Positions 2,795 to 57,192 of a DNA stretch of 64,000 nt are shown piece after piece. The stretch spans positions 1,377,790-1,441,789 of the forward strand of contig OZ244798.1 in the NCBI GenBank assembly GCA_965220015.1, read 5' to 3'. The notes under the pieces are model-generated. The model saw only the letters and a list, made by a program, of their open reading frames with translations, was not told the DNA's origin and did not search any database. Positions within the stretch are counted from its first letter, which is position 1, and every line of letters starts with the position of its first letter. Origin of the DNA: Chloroflexota bacterium. GTDB lineage: Bacteria > Chloroflexota > UBA11872 > VXOZ01. Both the position numbers and the translations under genes were made by a program.

Positions 2795-4536
2795 TTGCCA
2801 AAGGAAGCAGCAATCAACGTGGCGACCTCGTCGAAGACAGCCTCAGCAACTGCTGAATTCTCCGGGAAGGGAGTTGCCTCGGCGGCGAGCTACGTCAACC
2901 GGATTTCGCAGTTTGGCCGGCGCTTGCGGCTGTTGGCGGTGCTATTGCGGCTAGTCCGGGCCTTGTGGGTGGCGGCACTGCTTTACGTGGGTCTCTCGCT
3001 TATCGGGTCGCTGCTTGTGCCGCAGTTTCCGGTCTTTGCCGTCTGCTTTCTCCTTGCAATCGGCGTGTTCCTCGCCTTGGTCGTCCCTGCGGTGATGCGC
3101 CGTCTCAACACGCTCGACGTCGCCAAGGCCTACGATGAGCGTCTGTCGCTGTCCGAACGTCTTGCCACGGCGGTAGAAATGCTGGGGCGTACAGATGAGA
3201 ATCCGTTTCGCCCATTGCTCCTCGACGATGCCAGCCGTCACGCGGCAGAAATCCAACCGAGACAGGTATTTCCTCTTGCGATCCCGCAGCGAGACGTGCT
3301 TCTCCTGGCATTGGCATTGGTGGCGCTCTTTCTCTGGGAGGTGTTTCCCTATATGGCCGGTCAACTCGCTCCGCTTGCCCCCTTGGCGCACCAGGTAGCG
3401 GCAGTGCGTGAAGGCACGCTCATCGAGCAGACCTCACCGGATGCGTTCGTGGTCGGCGAAGATTCCGATACTCCCGTGGCGGCAAAGGACCTTGCGGAAC
3501 CGGTTGCGGCGCAGGAAGGGGCCCAGCAGGGCCAGAACCAGCCGTTACTCACGCAGGCTGAACTGAACCAGCAACAGAATTCCGCCCAGCAGGCTCAGGC
3601 CGCTGAGGAGGGGGAGGTGGGGGAGAACAAGGAAGGTGGGTCAGACCTCACAGATCTTGCGCAACAGCTTCAGGAAAGTCGCAATCCCCAGATCGATCAG
3701 CAAGCCACGTCTCTCGCCGAGATAGGCAGAGAGCTTACGCAGGCCCGGCCCTCACGCCAAGCCGGCCAGAACTTGGAGCGCGGCAACTACGAGCAGGCGG
3801 CGCAAGCGCTCGAAGAGTTGGCGCGGCAGGTGCGAGACCTCTCGCGAGAGGACCGCAATGACATGACCGATGCGTTTGCCAAGGCGGCCGAACGCGCGCA
3901 ACAGGCCGATCCGCGCCTGGCCCAGGAGTTAGCGGACGTGAGCAGGGAAGTCGCATCGTACAACGACCCCGCGACGGAGCGTGAACTGCAGGAACTAAGC
4001 GATGCCATTCAGGAGCGCGGACAGCGTATCCGGGCGCAGCAACAGTTGGAGCAGCAGGCTGAACAGTTGCGCGCCGGCGCGAGCGGCGAAGAATCAGGGG
4101 CGCAACAGAGCGATGCGCAGCAGCAGAGAAACCAGGCACAGCAGGCGTTCAACACAGCCGGCGTGGCGGAACAGCCGGGGCAGGCGCAGCAGCAAGATTC
4201 CTGGCAACTGCAGTCCGCGCCGGGCGGCCCAAGCCAAGGCGGCGGCAACCGCGGCGAGCAGTCCTTCGATCCGGGACCGGAAGCGCCCCGCCTGCAAATT
4301 CAACAGAAGCCATCGGTAGTCTTGGCGGACAGGGGGATTGGCCCGTCGCTCTGGTCGCCGCAACGTGCGCCGGTGGTTGTGCCCGGGCCAGGTTCAGCCC
4401 CGGCCCAGTATGGTGTTACCGACGCAGGTAACGCCATAATCTCCACGGGCGGCGCGAGTCACTTTGTGCCGTGGATGGTAGCCGACTATGTCCAACAATA
4501 CTTTAACGCCTTATCGAACGCGCTGGAGCAGTCACA

Positions 4537-4540
<4 letters not shown>
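2795..4540 (+). CDS. Hypothetical membrane protein with a long Gln/Ala/Glu-rich low-complexity (coiled-coil-like) region; first gene of the MoxR-DUF58-VWA operon
   Basis: 581-aa ORF. The N-terminal third has 3-4 predicted TM helices ([67 protein letters not shown]). Next comes ~250 aa of Q/A/E-rich sequence ([35 protein letters not shown]). The stop overlaps the moxR start (ATGA). The start is uncertain: 2795 is TTG, an alternative is GTG at 2819, and no strong RBS is present. Confidence 0.6.
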
Positions 4541-5534
<994 letters not shown>

Positions 5535-8268: not shown

Positions 8269-11001
8269 ATGCTTGCTTACTTTTCACAGCCATGGCTGCT
8301 CCTCCTGATCCCGCTGGCATGGATCGTAGTCATCTTGGTTGCCCGGCGTGGCGTGATGCAGCTTTCGCGGCGCACTCTCGTCTTGGCCACGACCCTGCGG
8401 CTGATAGCGATTGCCCTGCTTGTCTTGGCATTGGCCGGACTACGACTGCCGTTGTCAGGCGGACCGGTCAACACGATCTTCTTGCTGGACACCTCTGCGA
8501 GCATCCTGCCCGGGACTCAGGCCGCAGCCCGGCAGTGGATTGAAAGGGCGGCCGCACAGCGCGCGCCCGATGACAGCGTGGCGCTCTTGACATTTGGCGC
8601 GGGCACGCGCATCGACCAACCCTTTAGCCGTGGCGGCATTGGTGAGAGTGAAACCGCGGCCATTGTCGAAGAACGCACGAACATTGCGGACGCGTTGCGA
8701 ATGGCCGCGTCGCTGTTCCCACCCGACGCGCCGAAGCGAATCGTCTTGCTCTCTGACGGCAACCAAACCGCGGGTGACGTCATGCGCGCGGCGGAAGTCA
8801 TCGCGGCCCAGGGTGTGCAAGTGGACGTGGTGCCGCTCCTCGCGGAACCGGGGATCGATGCCGCCGTCACCGAGGTCGCGCCTCCGAATGCCCTACGGGA
8901 AGATGAAAACTTCGAAGTGCGGGTTACGGTGGCTGCCACGACCCAGGGCGAGGCGGTGCTGCGGCTGTTCATGAACGAAACGCTCGTGAGCGAGGGACCG
9001 GTTAGGCTGGAGTACGGCCAGAATTACTTTACAATCCAACAGCCTGGTATCGAAGAAGGGTTCTACTCATTTCGCGCCCAGGTGGTCGCGTCGGATGACC
9101 AGCGCCCGCAGAACAACGATGCGTATGGCTATTCACAAGTGGGGCCCAAGGGTCTCGTGCTGGTGGTAGAAAACATCGTTGGTGACGCAATCATACTTAC
9201 CCAGGCCCTCCAAGCAGCCGGAATCCAGGCGCAGAATGTCACGCCGGCCCAGTTGCCGACTCGCCCGGAAGATCTTGACGGCGTGTCCAGCGTGGTGCTC
9301 GTCAACGTCCCTGCCTCCCAGCTTACCGAACAGCAAATGCAGGCGCTCCAGGACTTTGTGAAGAGCTTTGGCGGCGGTCTCGTAGCGCTCGGCGGCGCTG
9401 CGTCATTCGGCATGGGCGATTATGGCGGCACGCCTTTGGAACATGCGCTGCCCGTCATCTCGCAGCCGCCGGACCATGAGGAATTGCCGACTCTCGCGCT
9501 GGCGCTCCTCATCGATAAATCAGGCAGCATGAACGAGGGCGCTCCGGTCTCCAAGATTGCCATGGCACGTGAAGCGGCGGCGCAGGCAGTTGAGATTCTG
9601 GAGAGCGGCGACGTGCTGGGCGTGCTGGCATTCGAATACTCGCCGCAGTGGGTGGTACGGCCCGCGCCGGTAAATGACGCCGAAGACGCGCAGAATGTTG
9701 TGCGGCGGGTTTCAACCATCGAGGCCGGGGGCGGCACCGACATCTACAACGCCTTGCAGCTTGCTTACGATACGCTCCGCCGTACGCCCGCGCAGGTGAA
9801 GCACATCATTCTCGTAACAGATGGGCAGTCCACTTCCGCGCCCGGCCTATGGGATGTCTTGATGACCCGCATGCGCCGCGACCACATTACGCTTTCAGCA
9901 GTGGCGATAGGGGCGGACGCCGATCAAATTCTGTTGCAGCGGCTGGTGCGGCTGGGTGACGGCAGGTACTACTATGCCGACGTGCCGGAGAACATTCCTC
10001 AGGTCGTGACAAAAGAGAGTCAGCGCGCGAGCCGCTCGCTGGTCATGAGCCGGCTCTTCCAGCCCCGGGTGGTAACGGCCAGCCCGATTTTGCGCGCAAT
10101 CTTGCCCGATTCCTTGCCCAATCTCTCCGCTTTCGTGCGTACAGAGCCAAAACCGGCCGCGGAGACACCGCTACTTTCTGACACTAGTGATGTGATATTG
10201 GCGCAATGGCAGTATGGTCTGGGCCGGGCGGTGGCGTGGACAAGCGATGCCGGCCAAGATTGGGCGGCAGACTGGGGTGAATGGCCCCAGAACCAGCAAT
10301 TCTGGGCGCAAATGGTGCGGTGGACAATGCCGAGTCCGCTCAATCCGCAACTGGCGACACAGGTACAGGTTGACGGTAGCGAGGTGACGGTGGCGGTGGA
10401 TTCGGTGGATGAGCAGGGCAACATTCGCAACTTGCTCAACACGCAAGTAGAGGTGGCAGGCCCGGAACAACGCGCCTTCTCACTCAACTTGCCGCAGACG
10501 GCGCCGGGGCGTTACGCAGGCACGCTGAATGTGGATAAAGCCGGTGTGTATGCCCTGCGCATAACGCAGTACGATGGCGATACGCCGGTGGTGGAGCAGA
10601 TTACGGGCGCCGTCGTGCCGGTTGCAGCCGAGTTCTTGAGCTTTGAGACCGACTATCGGCTCTTGCGGCGTTTGGCTACGGTCACAGGCGGGAAAGCACT
10701 GACGAGCGCGGCGGAGGCATTCCGACATGACCGGCCGCCGCCGGAGGGCTACAACCGGCCCTTCTGGCAGCCACTTGTAGTAATCGCGTTGATCCTGTTC
10801 GTTGCCGATATCGGTGTGCGCCGCCTGCGGTTTACCTGGTATGAGCTTGGGATATTTGGGTCAGTCGTGCGGTCGTTGCGCTTGCCGCGGCTAGGCGCTC
10901 CCTTGCAACGCGAGTTGCAACAGCAACTGCGGCAAGTGTCGCGCATGCGTTGGTTCGCGGGGCTGCAGTCCTGGTGGCAGCGCGTACCTAAGCGGTCCTA
11001 G
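8269..11001 (+). CDS. Large VWA-domain membrane protein (two vWFA domains with a GATase1-like middle domain)
   Basis: N-terminal TM helices and two VWA blocks (TIFLLDTSASILPG and ALLIDKSGSMNEG), then TVSTIEAGGGTDIYNAL, and a C-terminal TM helix. The ATG at 8269 lies 3 nt after the upstream stop; the ORF track start 8191 overlaps the previous gene. Confidence 0.8.
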   Translation: MLAYFSQPWLLLLIPLAWIVVILVARRGVMQLSRRTLVLATTLRLIAIALLVLALAGLRLPLSGGPVNTIFLLDTSASILPGTQAAARQWIERAAAQRAPDDSVALLTFGAGTRIDQPFSRGGIGESETAAIVEERTNIADALRMAASLFPPDAPKRIVLLSDGNQTAGDVMRAAEVIAAQGVQVDVVPLLAEPGIDAAVTEVAPPNALREDENFEVRVTVAATTQGEAVLRLFMNETLVSEGPVRLEYGQNYFTIQQPGIEEGFYSFRAQVVASDDQRPQNNDAYGYSQVGPKGLVLVVENIVGDAIILTQALQAAGIQAQNVTPAQLPTRPEDLDGVSSVVLVNVPASQLTEQQMQALQDFVKSFGGGLVALGGAASFGMGDYGGTPLEHALPVISQPPDHEELPTLALALLIDKSGSMNEGAPVSKIAMAREAAAQAVEILESGDVLGVLAFEYSPQWVVRPAPVNDAEDAQNVVRRVSTIEAGGGTDIYNALQLAYDTLRRTPAQVKHIILVTDGQSTSAPGLWDVLMTRMRRDHITLSAVAIGADADQILLQRLVRLGDGRYYYADVPENIPQVVTKESQRASRSLVMSRLFQPRVVTASPILRAILPDSLPNLSAFVRTEPKPAAETPLLSDTSDVILAQWQYGLGRAVAWTSDAGQDWAADWGEWPQNQQFWAQMVRWTMPSPLNPQLATQVQVDGSEVTVAVDSVDEQGNIRNLLNTQVEVAGPEQRAFSLNLPQTAPGRYAGTLNVDKAGVYALRITQYDGDTPVVEQITGAVVPVAAEFLSFETDYRLLRRLATVTGGKALTSAAEAFRHDRPPPEGYNRPFWQPLVVIALILFVADIGVRRLRFTWYELGIFGSVVRSLRLPRLGAPLQRELQQQLRQVSRMRWFAGLQSWWQRVPKRS

Positions 11002-11542: not shown

Positions 11543-12580
11543 ATGGAAACCATGGCAAACAAGGGCGCGGCAGAGATCGCAGATGCATCGTCGTCGTTTC
11601 CTTTGACCAGTATCGAGGCGCACCTGGCCCTTGAGTTTGTGCGTGTCACTGAAGAAGGCGCCATTGCCGCGGCGCGCACAATGGGTCAGGGAAGTCCCGA
11701 TGGCTCTGACGACGCCGCGGTGAAAGCCATGCGGGCCGCTCTCCAAGAAATTGTGATGGATGGCACTGTCGTCATTGGTGAAGGGGAACGGGACGAAGCG
11801 CCAATGCTCTACATTGGCGAACGACTGGGCAGTAACGGCGGTCCGGCCGTGGATATCGCCGTAGACCCCCTGGAGGGCACCAATCTCGTTGCCAGAGGGT
11901 TGAACAATGCCATTGCCGTAATCGCTGCGAGTGAGCGCGGGGGACTGCTGCACGCGCCGGACATTTATATGGAGAAGCTCATTGTCGGCCCCCCGGCGGC
12001 GGGTAAAGTAAACTTGGACTTCCCGGTGCTGGCTAATCTTCAGATTATCGCCGAGGCCCTGCAACGCCGGGTGCAAGATCTTACCGTTGTGATTCTTGAT
12101 CGCGACCGGCACAAAGAGCTTATTGAAGAGGTCCGGGGCGCCGGGGCACGCATTCGCCTCATTGCCGACGGCGACGTGACGGCGGCGGTGGCCTGCGCCA
12201 TCTCGGGTACCGGCGTGCATGCGGTCATGGGCATCGGCGGCGCGCCGGAAGGGGTCCTGGCCGCGGCGGCGCTGCGTTGTCTCGGCGGCGGTATGGTCGG
12301 CCGCTTTTGGTACCGCAACGACGAGGAACGCGAGCGCGTGCGGTCCATGGGCATAACAGACGCGGACCGTGTATTCAGCATCGAAGAGTTGGCGAGCGGC
12401 GAGCAGGTCGTATTCGTCGCAACTGCGGTCACCGACGGCGACATGCTGCGCGGCGTGCGCTTCTTTGGCGGCGGCGTCCGCACCCACACGCTTGTAATGA
12501 CCGGCCAGCGTCTCCTTGTGCGTTTTGTGGATAGCACGCACATCTTCGATAGTCAGCAGGTCGGTCGAATCCGCATCTAA
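11543..12580 (+). CDS. glpX: Fructose-1,6-bisphosphatase class II (GlpX)
   Basis: LALEFVRVTEEGAIAAAR...DDAAVKAMR...AVDIAVDPLEGTN...IADGDV matches the GlpX family throughout. The track start 11534 is TTG. ATG codons occur at 11543 and 11552, with an AAAGG RBS 9 nt before 11552; the choice between them is uncertain. Confidence 0.9.
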   Translation: METMANKGAAEIADASSSFPLTSIEAHLALEFVRVTEEGAIAAARTMGQGSPDGSDDAAVKAMRAALQEIVMDGTVVIGEGERDEAPMLYIGERLGSNGGPAVDIAVDPLEGTNLVARGLNNAIAVIAASERGGLLHAPDIYMEKLIVGPPAAGKVNLDFPVLANLQIIAEALQRRVQDLTVVILDRDRHKELIEEVRGAGARIRLIADGDVTAAVACAISGTGVHAVMGIGGAPEGVLAAAALRCLGGGMVGRFWYRNDEERERVRSMGITDADRVFSIEELASGEQVVFVATAVTDGDMLRGVRFFGGGVRTHTLVMTGQRLLVRFVDSTHIFDSQQVGRIRI

Positions 12581-12718
12581 GAGGATGTTTGCAAGAGGGT
12601 GGAGGTTAAACGTCATCCGTTCGCCCTGAGCTTGTCGAAGGGGCCGTTCATGGCTCGACAGGGGCTTGACGTCGGCCCCTCACCACGAACGGCTCTTGCA
12701 AGTTCAAGAACATCCTCC
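12581..12718 (+). ncRNA. Candidate structured RNA element (long-range closed stem with internal GC hairpins) immediately 3' of glpX
   Basis: 5' arm GAGGATGTTTGCAAGAG (12581-12597) pairs with 3' arm CTCTTGCAAGTTCAAGAACATCCTC (12694-12718). Internal stems GGGGCCG/CGGCCCC and GCCGTTC/GAACGGC. No ORF. It sits in a 440-bp gap between convergent genes. Confidence 0.3.
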
Positions 12719-12815
12719 AAGACAATACGGAGACTCTGCAGAAATCCTCTTAGTACCTAGTCGCGGTTGAAGCGCGCTTGCGATGTAAGATCGAGCCGCA
12801 CTTACAAGCCGTAGC

Positions 12816-12841
12816 GCGGGGGCTTGTCCCCCGCCTTTTGG
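12816..12841 (+). terminator. Rho-independent terminator (+ strand)
   Basis: GCGGGGG-CTTGT-CCCCCGC perfect 7-bp GC stem followed by CTTTTGG. It is ~260 nt downstream of the glpX stop. Confidence 0.6.
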
Positions 12842-13024
12842 CGCCAAGAGTAGACACGAACTTGGGAAAGGTGCTTCGCAAGGATGCCGATGGCAGATTC
12901 CGGGGCGGCCAAGAACGCACAGTATCGCTAGAGCGCACTTTGCCCGCGTTTGGGAATCCTGCTGCCTTTCAACACTCCTCATGCGCTTGCTGAATTGAAT
13001 GCAGCACCAGCCGGGCCTGACGCT

Positions 13025-13720
13025 CTAGCCGCCGCGTGCCAACACCGCCCCCCAGACCCAGGGGGCGCCGCCCTCTTGCGTGATTTGGCGGGCGCACGTA
13101 ACCAAAGTTGCGCCGGTCGTTGCAACGTCGTCGATGAGCAGCACACCCCCACGGCTGTATGCGCCGGGCCGGGCTGAGAATGCCCCGGCAACATTGCGCA
13201 AACGTTGCGGGCGCGAGAGTCCTACTTGGGGTGGCGTGTCCACTACGCGCGCAATGCCGTCTTTCATAGCAGGCACATGCAACGTTCCACTGACTTCTTG
13301 CGCCAGCAACGTGGCTTGATTGAAGCCGCGGACGGCTTCTCGCTTGGGATGAAGCGGCACCGGTACGACGGCAGCGCAGGGAGGCACTTCTGCTGCGATG
13401 ATGCTCGCGCAGAGCAACTTGCCTAAGTCTTGGGCTAAACTGGTGCGGCTCTGATACTTGAAACCATGGATCGCTTTACGGAGAGGGCCGGCATATGAAC
13501 CAACCACCACGATGCCGCGGAGCCTTGGATACTTTATGCGGCACTGACGGCAAAGCGTGTATGGCTTGGCCAGGGCGGCGTCGCAGAGCGGACAACGGAG
13601 GCTCGGTAGGATAGTGAACCCATTGATGCACGAACCACATAGGTTTTCGCCTAGCGCGCGACAGCTTACACAGCGCTGCGGGAGCACGAGGTCGAGCACA
13701 TGGTGCAGCAGTTTCTGCAC
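13025..13720 (-). CDS. comFC: ComF-family protein (phosphoribosyltransferase-domain, ComFC-like)
   Basis: N-terminal Cys-rich zinc-finger-like region (PQRCVSC...CGSC...CPLC...CRQC) and C-terminal PRTase motif VLLIDDVATTGATL. GTG start 3 nt downstream of the clpC stop. Confidence 0.75.
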   Translation of the reverse strand: MQKLLHHVLDLVLPQRCVSCRALGENLCGSCINGFTILPSLRCPLCDAALAKPYTLCRQCRIKYPRLRGIVVVGSYAGPLRKAIHGFKYQSRTSLAQDLGKLLCASIIAAEVPPCAAVVPVPLHPKREAVRGFNQATLLAQEVSGTLHVPAMKDGIARVVDTPPQVGLSRPQRLRNVAGAFSARPGAYSRGGVLLIDDVATTGATLVTCARQITQEGGAPWVWGAVLARGG

Positions 13721-20968: not shown

Positions 20969-20996
20969 GTAGGGGCACGACATGTCGTGCCCCTAC
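20969..20996. repeat. Perfect 28-bp palindrome GTAGGGGCACGACATGTCGTGCCCCTAC (copy 1); hairpin/terminator-like repeat element
   Basis: Exact reverse-complement symmetry. An identical copy lies at 26887-26914, and both are followed by the CTCATT flank. Copy 1 lies 3' of the minus-strand SBP gene. Confidence 0.7.
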
Positions 20997-26886: not shown

Positions 26887-26914
26887 GTAGGGGCACGACA
26901 TGTCGTGCCCCTAC
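26887..26914. repeat. Perfect 28-bp palindrome GTAGGGGCACGACATGTCGTGCCCCTAC (copy 2), between convergent dgt and oxidoreductase genes
   Basis: Identical to copy 1 at 20969-20996. It lies in a convergent intergenic gap, consistent with a bidirectional terminator hairpin. Confidence 0.7.
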
Positions 26915-56914: not shown

Positions 56915-56990
56915 TGGTACCCCGTGAGCGACTCGAACGCTCGACCCCTGGCTCCGCAAGCCAGTGCTCTATCCACTGAGCTAACGGGGC
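56915..56990 (-). tRNA. tRNA-Arg (anticodon read as GCG)
   Basis: Minus-strand sequence GCCCCGTTAGCTCAGTGGATAGAGCACTGGCTTGCGGAGCCAGGGGTCGAGCGTTCGAGTCGCTCACGGGGTACCA folds as a cloverleaf. Acceptor 7 bp with G1-U72. D arm GCTC/GAGC. Anticodon stem CTGGC/GCCAG with loop TTGCGGA. T arm GAGCG/CGCTC with TTCGAGT. Encoded CCA. Confidence 0.8.
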
Positions 56991-57192
56991 ATACCTATTT
57001 CCTGCTACTAGTATAGCATTTCGGGCGGCGTCGCCGAAGAATGACAGAAGGGCTGTGGACATTTACGTCCGCAGCCCTTCTGTCATGTTCAGCCGCGTGT
57101 CTACTGCAAGCCGGTTACTAGTGTTGCACTCTCGGCCCGGCATGTTGGAGGCAGCGCCGGTTCCGGGGAATGCCCACAATTTGCGGCATTGG

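Follow-up and report, generated by a model that had tools for sequence, protein, structure and literature searches.

A structured spacer downstream of glpX in a Chloroflexota genome is probably a palindromic DNA repeat in a derived allele

The structured element that follows glpX in a 64-kb stretch of a Chloroflexota genome (the whole of this stretch, 64,000 nucleotides, is referred to here as the window) is probably a DNA-level palindromic repeat within a derived spacer allele and not a conserved RNA gene. The window element is an interspersed palindromic repeat, which is a kind of element already known. According to the model favored here, a 445-nt allele (12577-13031) has replaced an ancestral spacer of ~144 nt, and its most stable part (12577-12722) corresponds to one young copy of the repeat nested within a second, locus-specific inverted repeat.

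Along the window, a VWA/GATase1-like gene and an ORF of 132 amino acids precede glpX on the plus strand, after which come the convergent comF-like and clpC-type genes. The glpX gene, delineated by positions 11552 to 12580, encodes a class II fructose-1,6-bisphosphatase of 342 amino acids (Pfam FBPase_glpX, E 7e-135). The recorded product matches exactly from the ATG at 11552, and the stop codon occupies 12578-12580. The comF-like gene on the minus strand (13025-13720) is convergent with glpX and is characterized by a double zinc ribbon (Pfam DZR_2) and a phosphoribosyltransferase-type motif. This convergent order of glpX and comF is kept in nine related species (L001-L009). Exact-protein look-ups for a 92-aa spacer ORF, for two to three comF start variants, and for ClpC gave no record. 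The gap between the two convergent genes measures 444 nt (12581-13024). A previous sequence-only reading had described it as devoid of ORFs of coding quality, and so it appears: the ORFs of the spacer have negative codon-usage scores, are without a GC1/GC2/GC3 pattern, and have no Pfam match.

The 5' outer arm of the element, (CTAA)GAGGATGTTTGCAAGAG, extends from 12577 to 12597 on the plus strand and overlaps the glpX stop codon. The arm proper, GAGGATGTTTGCAAGAG, is positioned directly after that codon at 12581-12597, as the sequence-only reading had placed its 17-nt arm. It takes part in two inverted repeats, I1 and I2. In I2, its partner is the 3' outer arm, CTCTTGCAA-GTTCAAGA-ACATCCTC(CAAGA), at 12693-12722 on the plus strand, a pairing also observed in a minimum-free-energy fold. 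Within this region the 25-nt 3' arm, CTCTTGCAAGTTCAAGAACATCCTC (12693-12717), pairs with the 5' arm through 9 bp, an 8-nt bulge, and 8 bp. The 3' arm had been recognized from the letters alone, but the distance between the outer arms is 95 nt and not the ~110 nt first given. In I1, the 5' arm meets an alternative 3' partner, TGCAGAAATCCTCTTAG, at 12737-12753 on the plus strand. The two are complementary at 15 of 17 positions, and theirs is the pairing chosen in the minimum-free-energy fold of a 276-nt stretch. Two GC-rich inner stems had likewise been proposed, and all four of their halves are present, namely GGGGCCG (12640-12646) with CGGCCCC (12673-12679) and GCCGTTC (12643-12649) with GAACGGC (12687-12693). 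The 5' halves of the two stems overlap, however, and thus both stems cannot form together.

The compound hairpin (12577-12722) folds with an energy of -67 kcal/mol and a z-score of -4.7, and none of 200 shuffled sequences was equally stable. When corrected for GC content and compared with 146-nt sliding windows across the 64 kb, it ranks as approximately the fifth most stable locus. The z-scores for the 276-nt stretch are -4.3 on the plus strand and -4.2 on the minus strand. As a description of the region, non-coding and strongly structured was accurate on both counts. The duplex formed by the outer arms alone has an energy of -25.8 kcal/mol (p = 0.015 versus shuffled flanks). Among 45-mer pairs taken at equal spacing from the 64-kb window, 34% do as well. 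The outer arms by themselves are weak evidence; the structural signal arises from the entire compound hairpin. From 12758 to 12816 the structure does not rise above that of shuffled sequences (z -0.7).

Downstream of this stretch, on the plus strand, is a terminator-like hairpin (12817-12842; -15.4 kcal/mol) with a 7-bp GC stem and a 5-nt loop followed by CUUUUGG. Its letters are GCGGGGGCTTGTCCCCCGC at 12817-12835 and then CTTTTGG. It had been taken for a textbook terminator, and both the hairpin and the CTTTTGG are indeed there, but the tract contains only four U residues, so that the consensus terminator scan, which requires 5 or more T among 8 positions, makes no call at 12817-12842. The phrase "long structured 3'UTR," one of several labels suggested for the element, is still a fair description of the sequence lying between the glpX stop and this plus-strand hairpin. 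The block would be transcribed together with glpX, giving a 3'UTR of ~260 nt that ends at the hairpin and its U4 tract (12817-12842). Adjoining the 3' outer arm is a second terminator-like site, on the minus strand at 12733-12714 (TCTCCGTATTGTCTTGGAGG plus a T-rich tail). If comF transcripts use the site at 12733-12714, the convergent 3'UTRs would overlap by ~130 nt.

The other labels, those of an independent or conserved sRNA gene and of a 6S-like RNA, found no support in comparison with Rfam, a promoter search, and the survey of relatives. The Rfam scan proposed in the sequence-only reading was run, and no family matched the region: across the 64-kb window at gathering thresholds only two tRNAs were returned, and between 12450 and 13100 at E <= 10 there was only noise (hya at 16 bits, RF_site1 at 14 bits) and no match to 6S RNA. 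A scan of the region for a sigma-70-like promoter found none. Like 6S RNA, the element is built as a long closed stem broken by internal loops, but it has no Rfam 6S match, lacks conservation among relatives, and is ~40 nt shorter.

A full copy of a dispersed palindromic repeat, CCGTTCG...CGAACGG, is located at 12617-12692 on the plus strand. It was identified with a covariance model, R1, built from an alignment (A1) of 26 distinct copies, and it corresponds to model positions 1-77. In a search of the 64 kb with filters off, the copy was matched over its full length at 39.5 bits (E 1.4e-8). It is the only significant R1 match in the window, and thus there is one copy there. Arm A, CCGTTCGCCCTGAGCTTGTCGAAGGG, occupies 12617-12642 on the plus strand (nhmmer E 7e-8 against an arm profile) and agrees with the arm A consensus, CCGTTCGCCCTGAGCYTGTCGAAGGG, at 26 of 26 nucleotides. 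BLAST searches revealed stretches of 26-27 nt that are 100% identical to it in replicons of Methylotuvimicrobium, Polaromonas, Comamonas, and Sphingobium. Arm B, at 12647-12692 on the plus strand, is of a "TTCATGG ... CTCACCACGAACGG" subtype as judged by comparison with copies L082, L089, L091, and L092, and the subtype marks TTCATGG and CTCACCACGAACGG are both kept. It is interrupted by a 16-nt insertion, GGCTTGACGTCGGCCC (12663-12678). Without that insertion, 29 of 30 nucleotides match L082, the remaining one being a substitution. With one substitution and one 16-nt insertion relative to the L082 arm B, the window copy looks young. The arm mismatch at positions 8-9 is also kept, with CC in arm A of the window and TG in the reverse complement of arm B. 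The inner "GC-rich stems" of the sequence-only reading are thus the two arms of the dispersed palindromic DNA repeat plus the insertion.

Translation of CCGTTCGCCCTGAGCTTGTCGAAGGG yields the peptides PFALSLSKG and PFDKLRANG, which we take to be spurious ORFs of the sort that arise in repeats; a Pfam search with the two peptides gave no match. Stutter-like partial duplications of an arm (GTCGAAGGGTCGAAGGG, or a tandem CACGAACGGCTTAACTTTTGTCTTA unit, for example) were noted in many IMG/VR copies, among them L098, L099, L107, L109, L090, and L092. They resemble the insertion at 12663-12678 and could have arisen either by slippage at the hairpin or through an error of assembly.

In the family as a whole, a variable center separates two conserved, inverted arms of 26 nt, and a 2-nt internal mismatch is conserved as well. 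Of the 25 stem pairs in A1, 13 never vary and one covaries (UA 11, CG 6, UG 4, other 5). Two positions are mismatched almost without exception, pairing being absent at 8:90 in 26 of 26 copies and at 9:89 in 22 of 26. What is conserved in the family is sequence, not RNA pairing. The copies lie in both orientations with respect to neighboring genes, as can be seen by comparing L146 with L228 and L092. Neither a target-site duplication nor a conserved flank is visible in the family copies.

The exact 24-mer core was found in 58 IMG/VR contigs, and in most of these copies an inverted arm B ending in CGAACGG follows after 2-60 variable nucleotides. BLAST searches of plasmids and chromids gave 26-30-nt matches (97-100% identity) in Sphingobium, Comamonas, Polaromonas, and Methylotuvimicrobium, and with a second query the list grew to include Sphingomonas, Novosphingobium, Sphingopyxis, Variovorax, and Moraxella. 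Arms conserved at 26-27 of 27 nucleotides are present in replicons of the Sphingomonadaceae, Comamonadaceae, Moraxella, and Methylotuvimicrobium. All of the BLAST matches are unannotated, and a single replicon may contain as many as 11 of them, as in Sphingobium. The arms are near-identical from the Proteobacteria to the Chloroflexota. No copy of the family was found in E. coli genomes or in the records of cultured phages. Among glpX loci the family is sparse, in that only L006 has a convincing copy in 790 kb of DNA from 161 loci. R1 matches in L071, L160, and L226 were judged on inspection to be chance or low-complexity. A search of the literature on the motif, the peptides, and RF02901 brought up no paper containing the motif and no name or description of the family.

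The copy in L006, a related Chloroflexota with 88% GlpX identity, lies at 4315-4427 in a glpX-comF spacer of 618 nt. It consists of two back-to-back copies with their CCGTTCG ends facing one another across a 12-nt gap. Other short palindromes such as CCTCCGGGAGAGGGGA are found in the same spacer, the remainder of which is unrelated to that of the window.

In six IMG/VR contigs (L132 at 8351-8419, L106, L112, L119, L123, and L130) the repeat occupies a single orthologous site in a GTA/phage head module, where it is flanked by a DUF6127 gene and an S78 prohead protease gene and lies downstream of portal. At this site the arms are invariant (alignment A2), whereas identity in the adjoining coding DNA is no higher than 66-85%. 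Fixation is likewise seen at orthologous loci of Moraxella plasmids and Sphingobium chromids, and when an empty site was sought in Sphingobium and Moraxella replicons, the repeat was present in every homologous locus found. This orthologous retention with invariant arms, together with fixation, indicates that the family is not simply fast-moving junk. The arm sequence is constrained or repeatedly homogenized in some settings. Between the paired copies in L092 and L112 there is no transposase, only phage structural genes.

Only one curated relative of the repeat was encountered, RF02901 (AaHKsRNA41), a family presumably derived from the sRNA catalogue of strain HK1651. The arms of its consensus hairpin, GCUGAgCUUGcCGAAG and UUCGgCAAGcUCAgC, contain the core of the repeat. 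Canonical copies of the repeat family score 21-29 bits with this model against a gathering score of 97. The window copy differs in having no match at E <= 10, and beyond the shared core the 187-nt model is Aggregatibacter-specific. The names of the AaHKsRNA series go back to an sRNA catalogue made by RNA-seq for strain HK1651 (PMC5909427).

This relationship bears upon a second explanation, in which the element would be an acquired sRNA, either 3'UTR-derived or independent, that is discrete, stable, trans-acting, and horizontally gained. The very stable structure and a terminator-like hairpin of its own are consistent with such a molecule, as is the sub-threshold match of the canonical copies to an expressed intergenic sRNA of Aggregatibacter (PMC5909427). 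The element is, however, without a detectable promoter-like site, its copy in the window has no Rfam match at E <= 10, and neither the nearest strain nor any of the related species possesses it. Furthermore, the stem is conserved in sequence and does not covary, and the copies occur in both orientations. We consider an acquired sRNA unlikely, and a palindromic DNA repeat remains the preferred reading.

The history of the spacer was examined by comparison with the closest genome, L081, a 3.59-Mb contig that encodes an identical GlpX protein. The two sequences are 99.28% identical over 4,028 nt upstream and 99.79% identical over 2,857 nt downstream of a spacer that does not align. On this alignment of flanks and spacer, the strain-specific block runs from 12577 to 13031. 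The spacer measures 445 nt in the window versus 144 nt in L081, and local alignment of the two in both orientations gave scores of 27-36, shuffled sequences giving 27 +/- 5. By contrast, the spacer of L081 has clear homologues (local alignment score 80) in L002 and in L001, a sister species whose GlpX is 97% identical, and from this homology it follows that the short spacer is ancestral and that of the window derived. The window spacer is absent from all nine related species (L001-L009), and the sole piece common to it and to their spacers is the 26-nt motif in L006. Conservation downstream of glpX had been put forward in the sequence-only reading as a test of a structured RNA; the nearest strain and the nine related species all lack the element. 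In L081 the comF-like ORF at 4173-4868 is intact, yet it is missing from the gene table of that contig.

The mismatches between the window and L081 are not clustered at the junctions, and over its final 800 nt glpX shows no difference. Nearby differences are limited to 12577 and 13031, both of them synonymous. Sharp junctions at the stop codons accompanied by linked synonymous changes would fit an older dimorphism with flanks homogenized by recombination. A clean pair of filled and empty sites was not found, the difference between L081 and the window being a replacement and not a simple insertion. A search for glpX relatives in metagenome_contigs produced a best match of 66% identity and no further strains. 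One short-read contig, L145 (Logan ERR13605531, 1785 nt), carries the exact 132-aa protein of the window strain and breaks off 6 nt short of the glpX stop codon, exactly at the border of the variable spacer, an indication that the ERR13605531 sample contains both spacer alleles, or repeats.

That contig end raises the question of an assembly artefact, namely a chimeric or fold-back sequence in the spacer. The break 6 nt before the stop and the stutter-like duplications in several metagenomic copies of the family would be in keeping with one. The block, however, is not an inverted copy of nearby DNA and has no second copy in the window, its junctions fall exactly at two stop codons with both reading frames intact, and two co-existing alleles would equally produce a break in a contig. 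An artefact is accordingly regarded as highly improbable.

The outer arms invite another interpretation, that the unit of ~146 nt (12577-12722) is a MITE in which they serve as terminal inverted repeats and the palindromic repeat is cargo. Like a MITE, the unit is small, non-coding, bounded by inverted repeats, and variable in its presence between close strains. The flanking arms contribute 17 complementary bases, and a minority of family copies (L093, L104, and L114) are likewise embedded within longer inverted flanks. Unlike a MITE, the unit shows no target-site duplication, since TCTAA and CAAGA, the letters at its two flanks, do not form a direct repeat, and the searches revealed neither a related transposase nor a second copy of the outer arms. 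Specifically, there is no other outer-arm copy in the 64 kb at <=3 mismatches, a search of 241 million metagenome records (metagenome_contigs) gave nothing for the arm pair, and five IMG/VR matches to the 17-mer arm, all in phage coding DNA, are at about the level expected by chance from our own arithmetic. The 17-mer outer arm was rejected as a repeat in its own right on the basis of its single copy in the window and these chance-level IMG/VR matches. In addition, the energy of the arm duplex is unexceptional, and the difference between strains spans the entire 445 nt and not merely the unit. It is improbable that the unit is a MITE, and the palindromic repeat is retained here as the repeated entity. 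In L093, L104, and L114 the repeat is nested in a second inverted module of TTCGCGCGAAGACGCGAAGACACGAAG-type, the modules being related to one another. The composite hairpins of these three are very long, with flank duplexes of -46 to -55 kcal/mol.

Among known systems, the repeat most invites comparison with the REP/REPIN elements. It shares with them the form of a short, intergenic, non-coding repeat whose two inverted arms make an imperfect hairpin with conserved mismatches, and the alignment A1 and its pair counts reveal the same arrangement of two inverted units around a short spacer. Both are typically positioned just past stop codons and in the gaps of convergent gene pairs. REP/REPIN elements are known to affect mRNA 3' ends in cis, which would be a further point of likeness. 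REP/BIME hairpins stabilize the upstream mRNA and can modulate termination. The differences are equally distinct. The repeat has no GTAG or CGTC tag, its arms beginning instead with CCGTTCG; the arms are not palindromes in themselves; the copy number is one in 64 kb; and whereas REPs are lineage-specific, the arms of this repeat are near-identical across phyla. A GTAG or CGTC at one end of each repeat is the criterion for REP/REPIN elements mobilized by RAYTs (PMC3733652), and the motif is absent from that survey of GTAG/CGTC REPs. The likeness to integron attC sites is one of architecture only, consisting of conserved ends, a variable self-complementary center, and conserved unpaired bases. 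The ends of the repeat, GTTCGCC...CGAAC, are in the order opposite to the attC RYYYAAC...GTTRRRY, so that the consensus is not fitted, and the copies of the repeat are not in cassette arrays.

By analogy with these systems, the repeat in the glpX transcript would form a long stem-loop of the REP/BIME type and act in cis only. Its possible roles would include a barrier to 3'-5' exonucleases, a substrate of the RNase III type, and an insulator of the convergent genes. If it acts at all, the ~24-bp stem with its internal loop would do so in cis, on the stability or processing of the mRNA 3' end or in insulation. At the glpX-comF locus the repeat is probably neutral or selfish, and any effect on the 3' end of the glpX mRNA is, on the best reading, at most incidental.

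A stronger version of this idea is that the element is a selected cis-regulatory signal of glpX, either an RNase III/retroregulation site or a bidirectional insulator, with the allele kept by selection. A stem of ~24 bp with an internal loop would suit the size of an RNase III substrate, the family is kept with invariant arms in the GTA/phage head operon across diverged lineages, and a terminator-like site lies on the minus strand at 12733-12714. The closest strain and the sister species nevertheless manage without the repeat, and its canonical pairing is broken in the window by the 16-nt insertion in arm B. There is little likelihood that such a signal is what maintains the allele, and the reading of a palindromic DNA repeat that is neutral or selfish at this locus is preferred.

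Other hairpins were observed in the window. A perfect palindrome, GTAGGGGCACGACATGTCGTGCCCCTAC, is present in two copies at 20969-20996 and 26887-26914. It is intergenic, carries a GTAG tag like a classical REP, and is unrelated to the repeat described here. The copy at 20969-20996 lies within the most stable 146-nt window of the 64 kb (z -7.2 versus shuffles). At 57041-57086 there is a near-perfect 20-bp hairpin, ATGACAGAAGGGCTGTGGAC / GTCCGCAGCCCTTCTGTCAT, ~50 nt from a tRNA at 56918-56990, and the 145-nt window around it (56991-57135) has a z-score of -6.4. An intergenic hairpin of 15-17 bp, AGTGATGGGCTCAGC...GCTGAGCCCATCGCT, is located at 341-379, the surrounding 146 nt having a z-score of -5.5. 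This Chloroflexota genome seems to place long GC hairpins behind many of its genes.

With regard to annotation, the region is to be described as a repeat-derived hairpin in a variable spacer, and an sRNA or riboswitch-like label is unwarranted. Similar false calls of structured RNA are likely wherever the repeat occurs, and RF02901 may be an example. The 445-nt and 144-nt alleles, situated between identical genes, constitute a natural pair for the effects of a hairpin on an mRNA 3' end. The stronger lead is the repeat family itself, with its near-identity across phyla, its conserved mismatch, and its orthologous retention in GTA-like clusters. The retention at the GTA/phage, Moraxella, and Sphingobium loci points to function over pure selfishness, and the 26-nt arms with their fixed mismatch may be recognized by a conserved protein or RNase. 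It can be proposed, as a tentative possibility, that CCGTTCG...CGAACGG is an undescribed pan-bacterial cis-element or mobile hairpin, in which case the allele in the window would record its recent acquisition across phyla.
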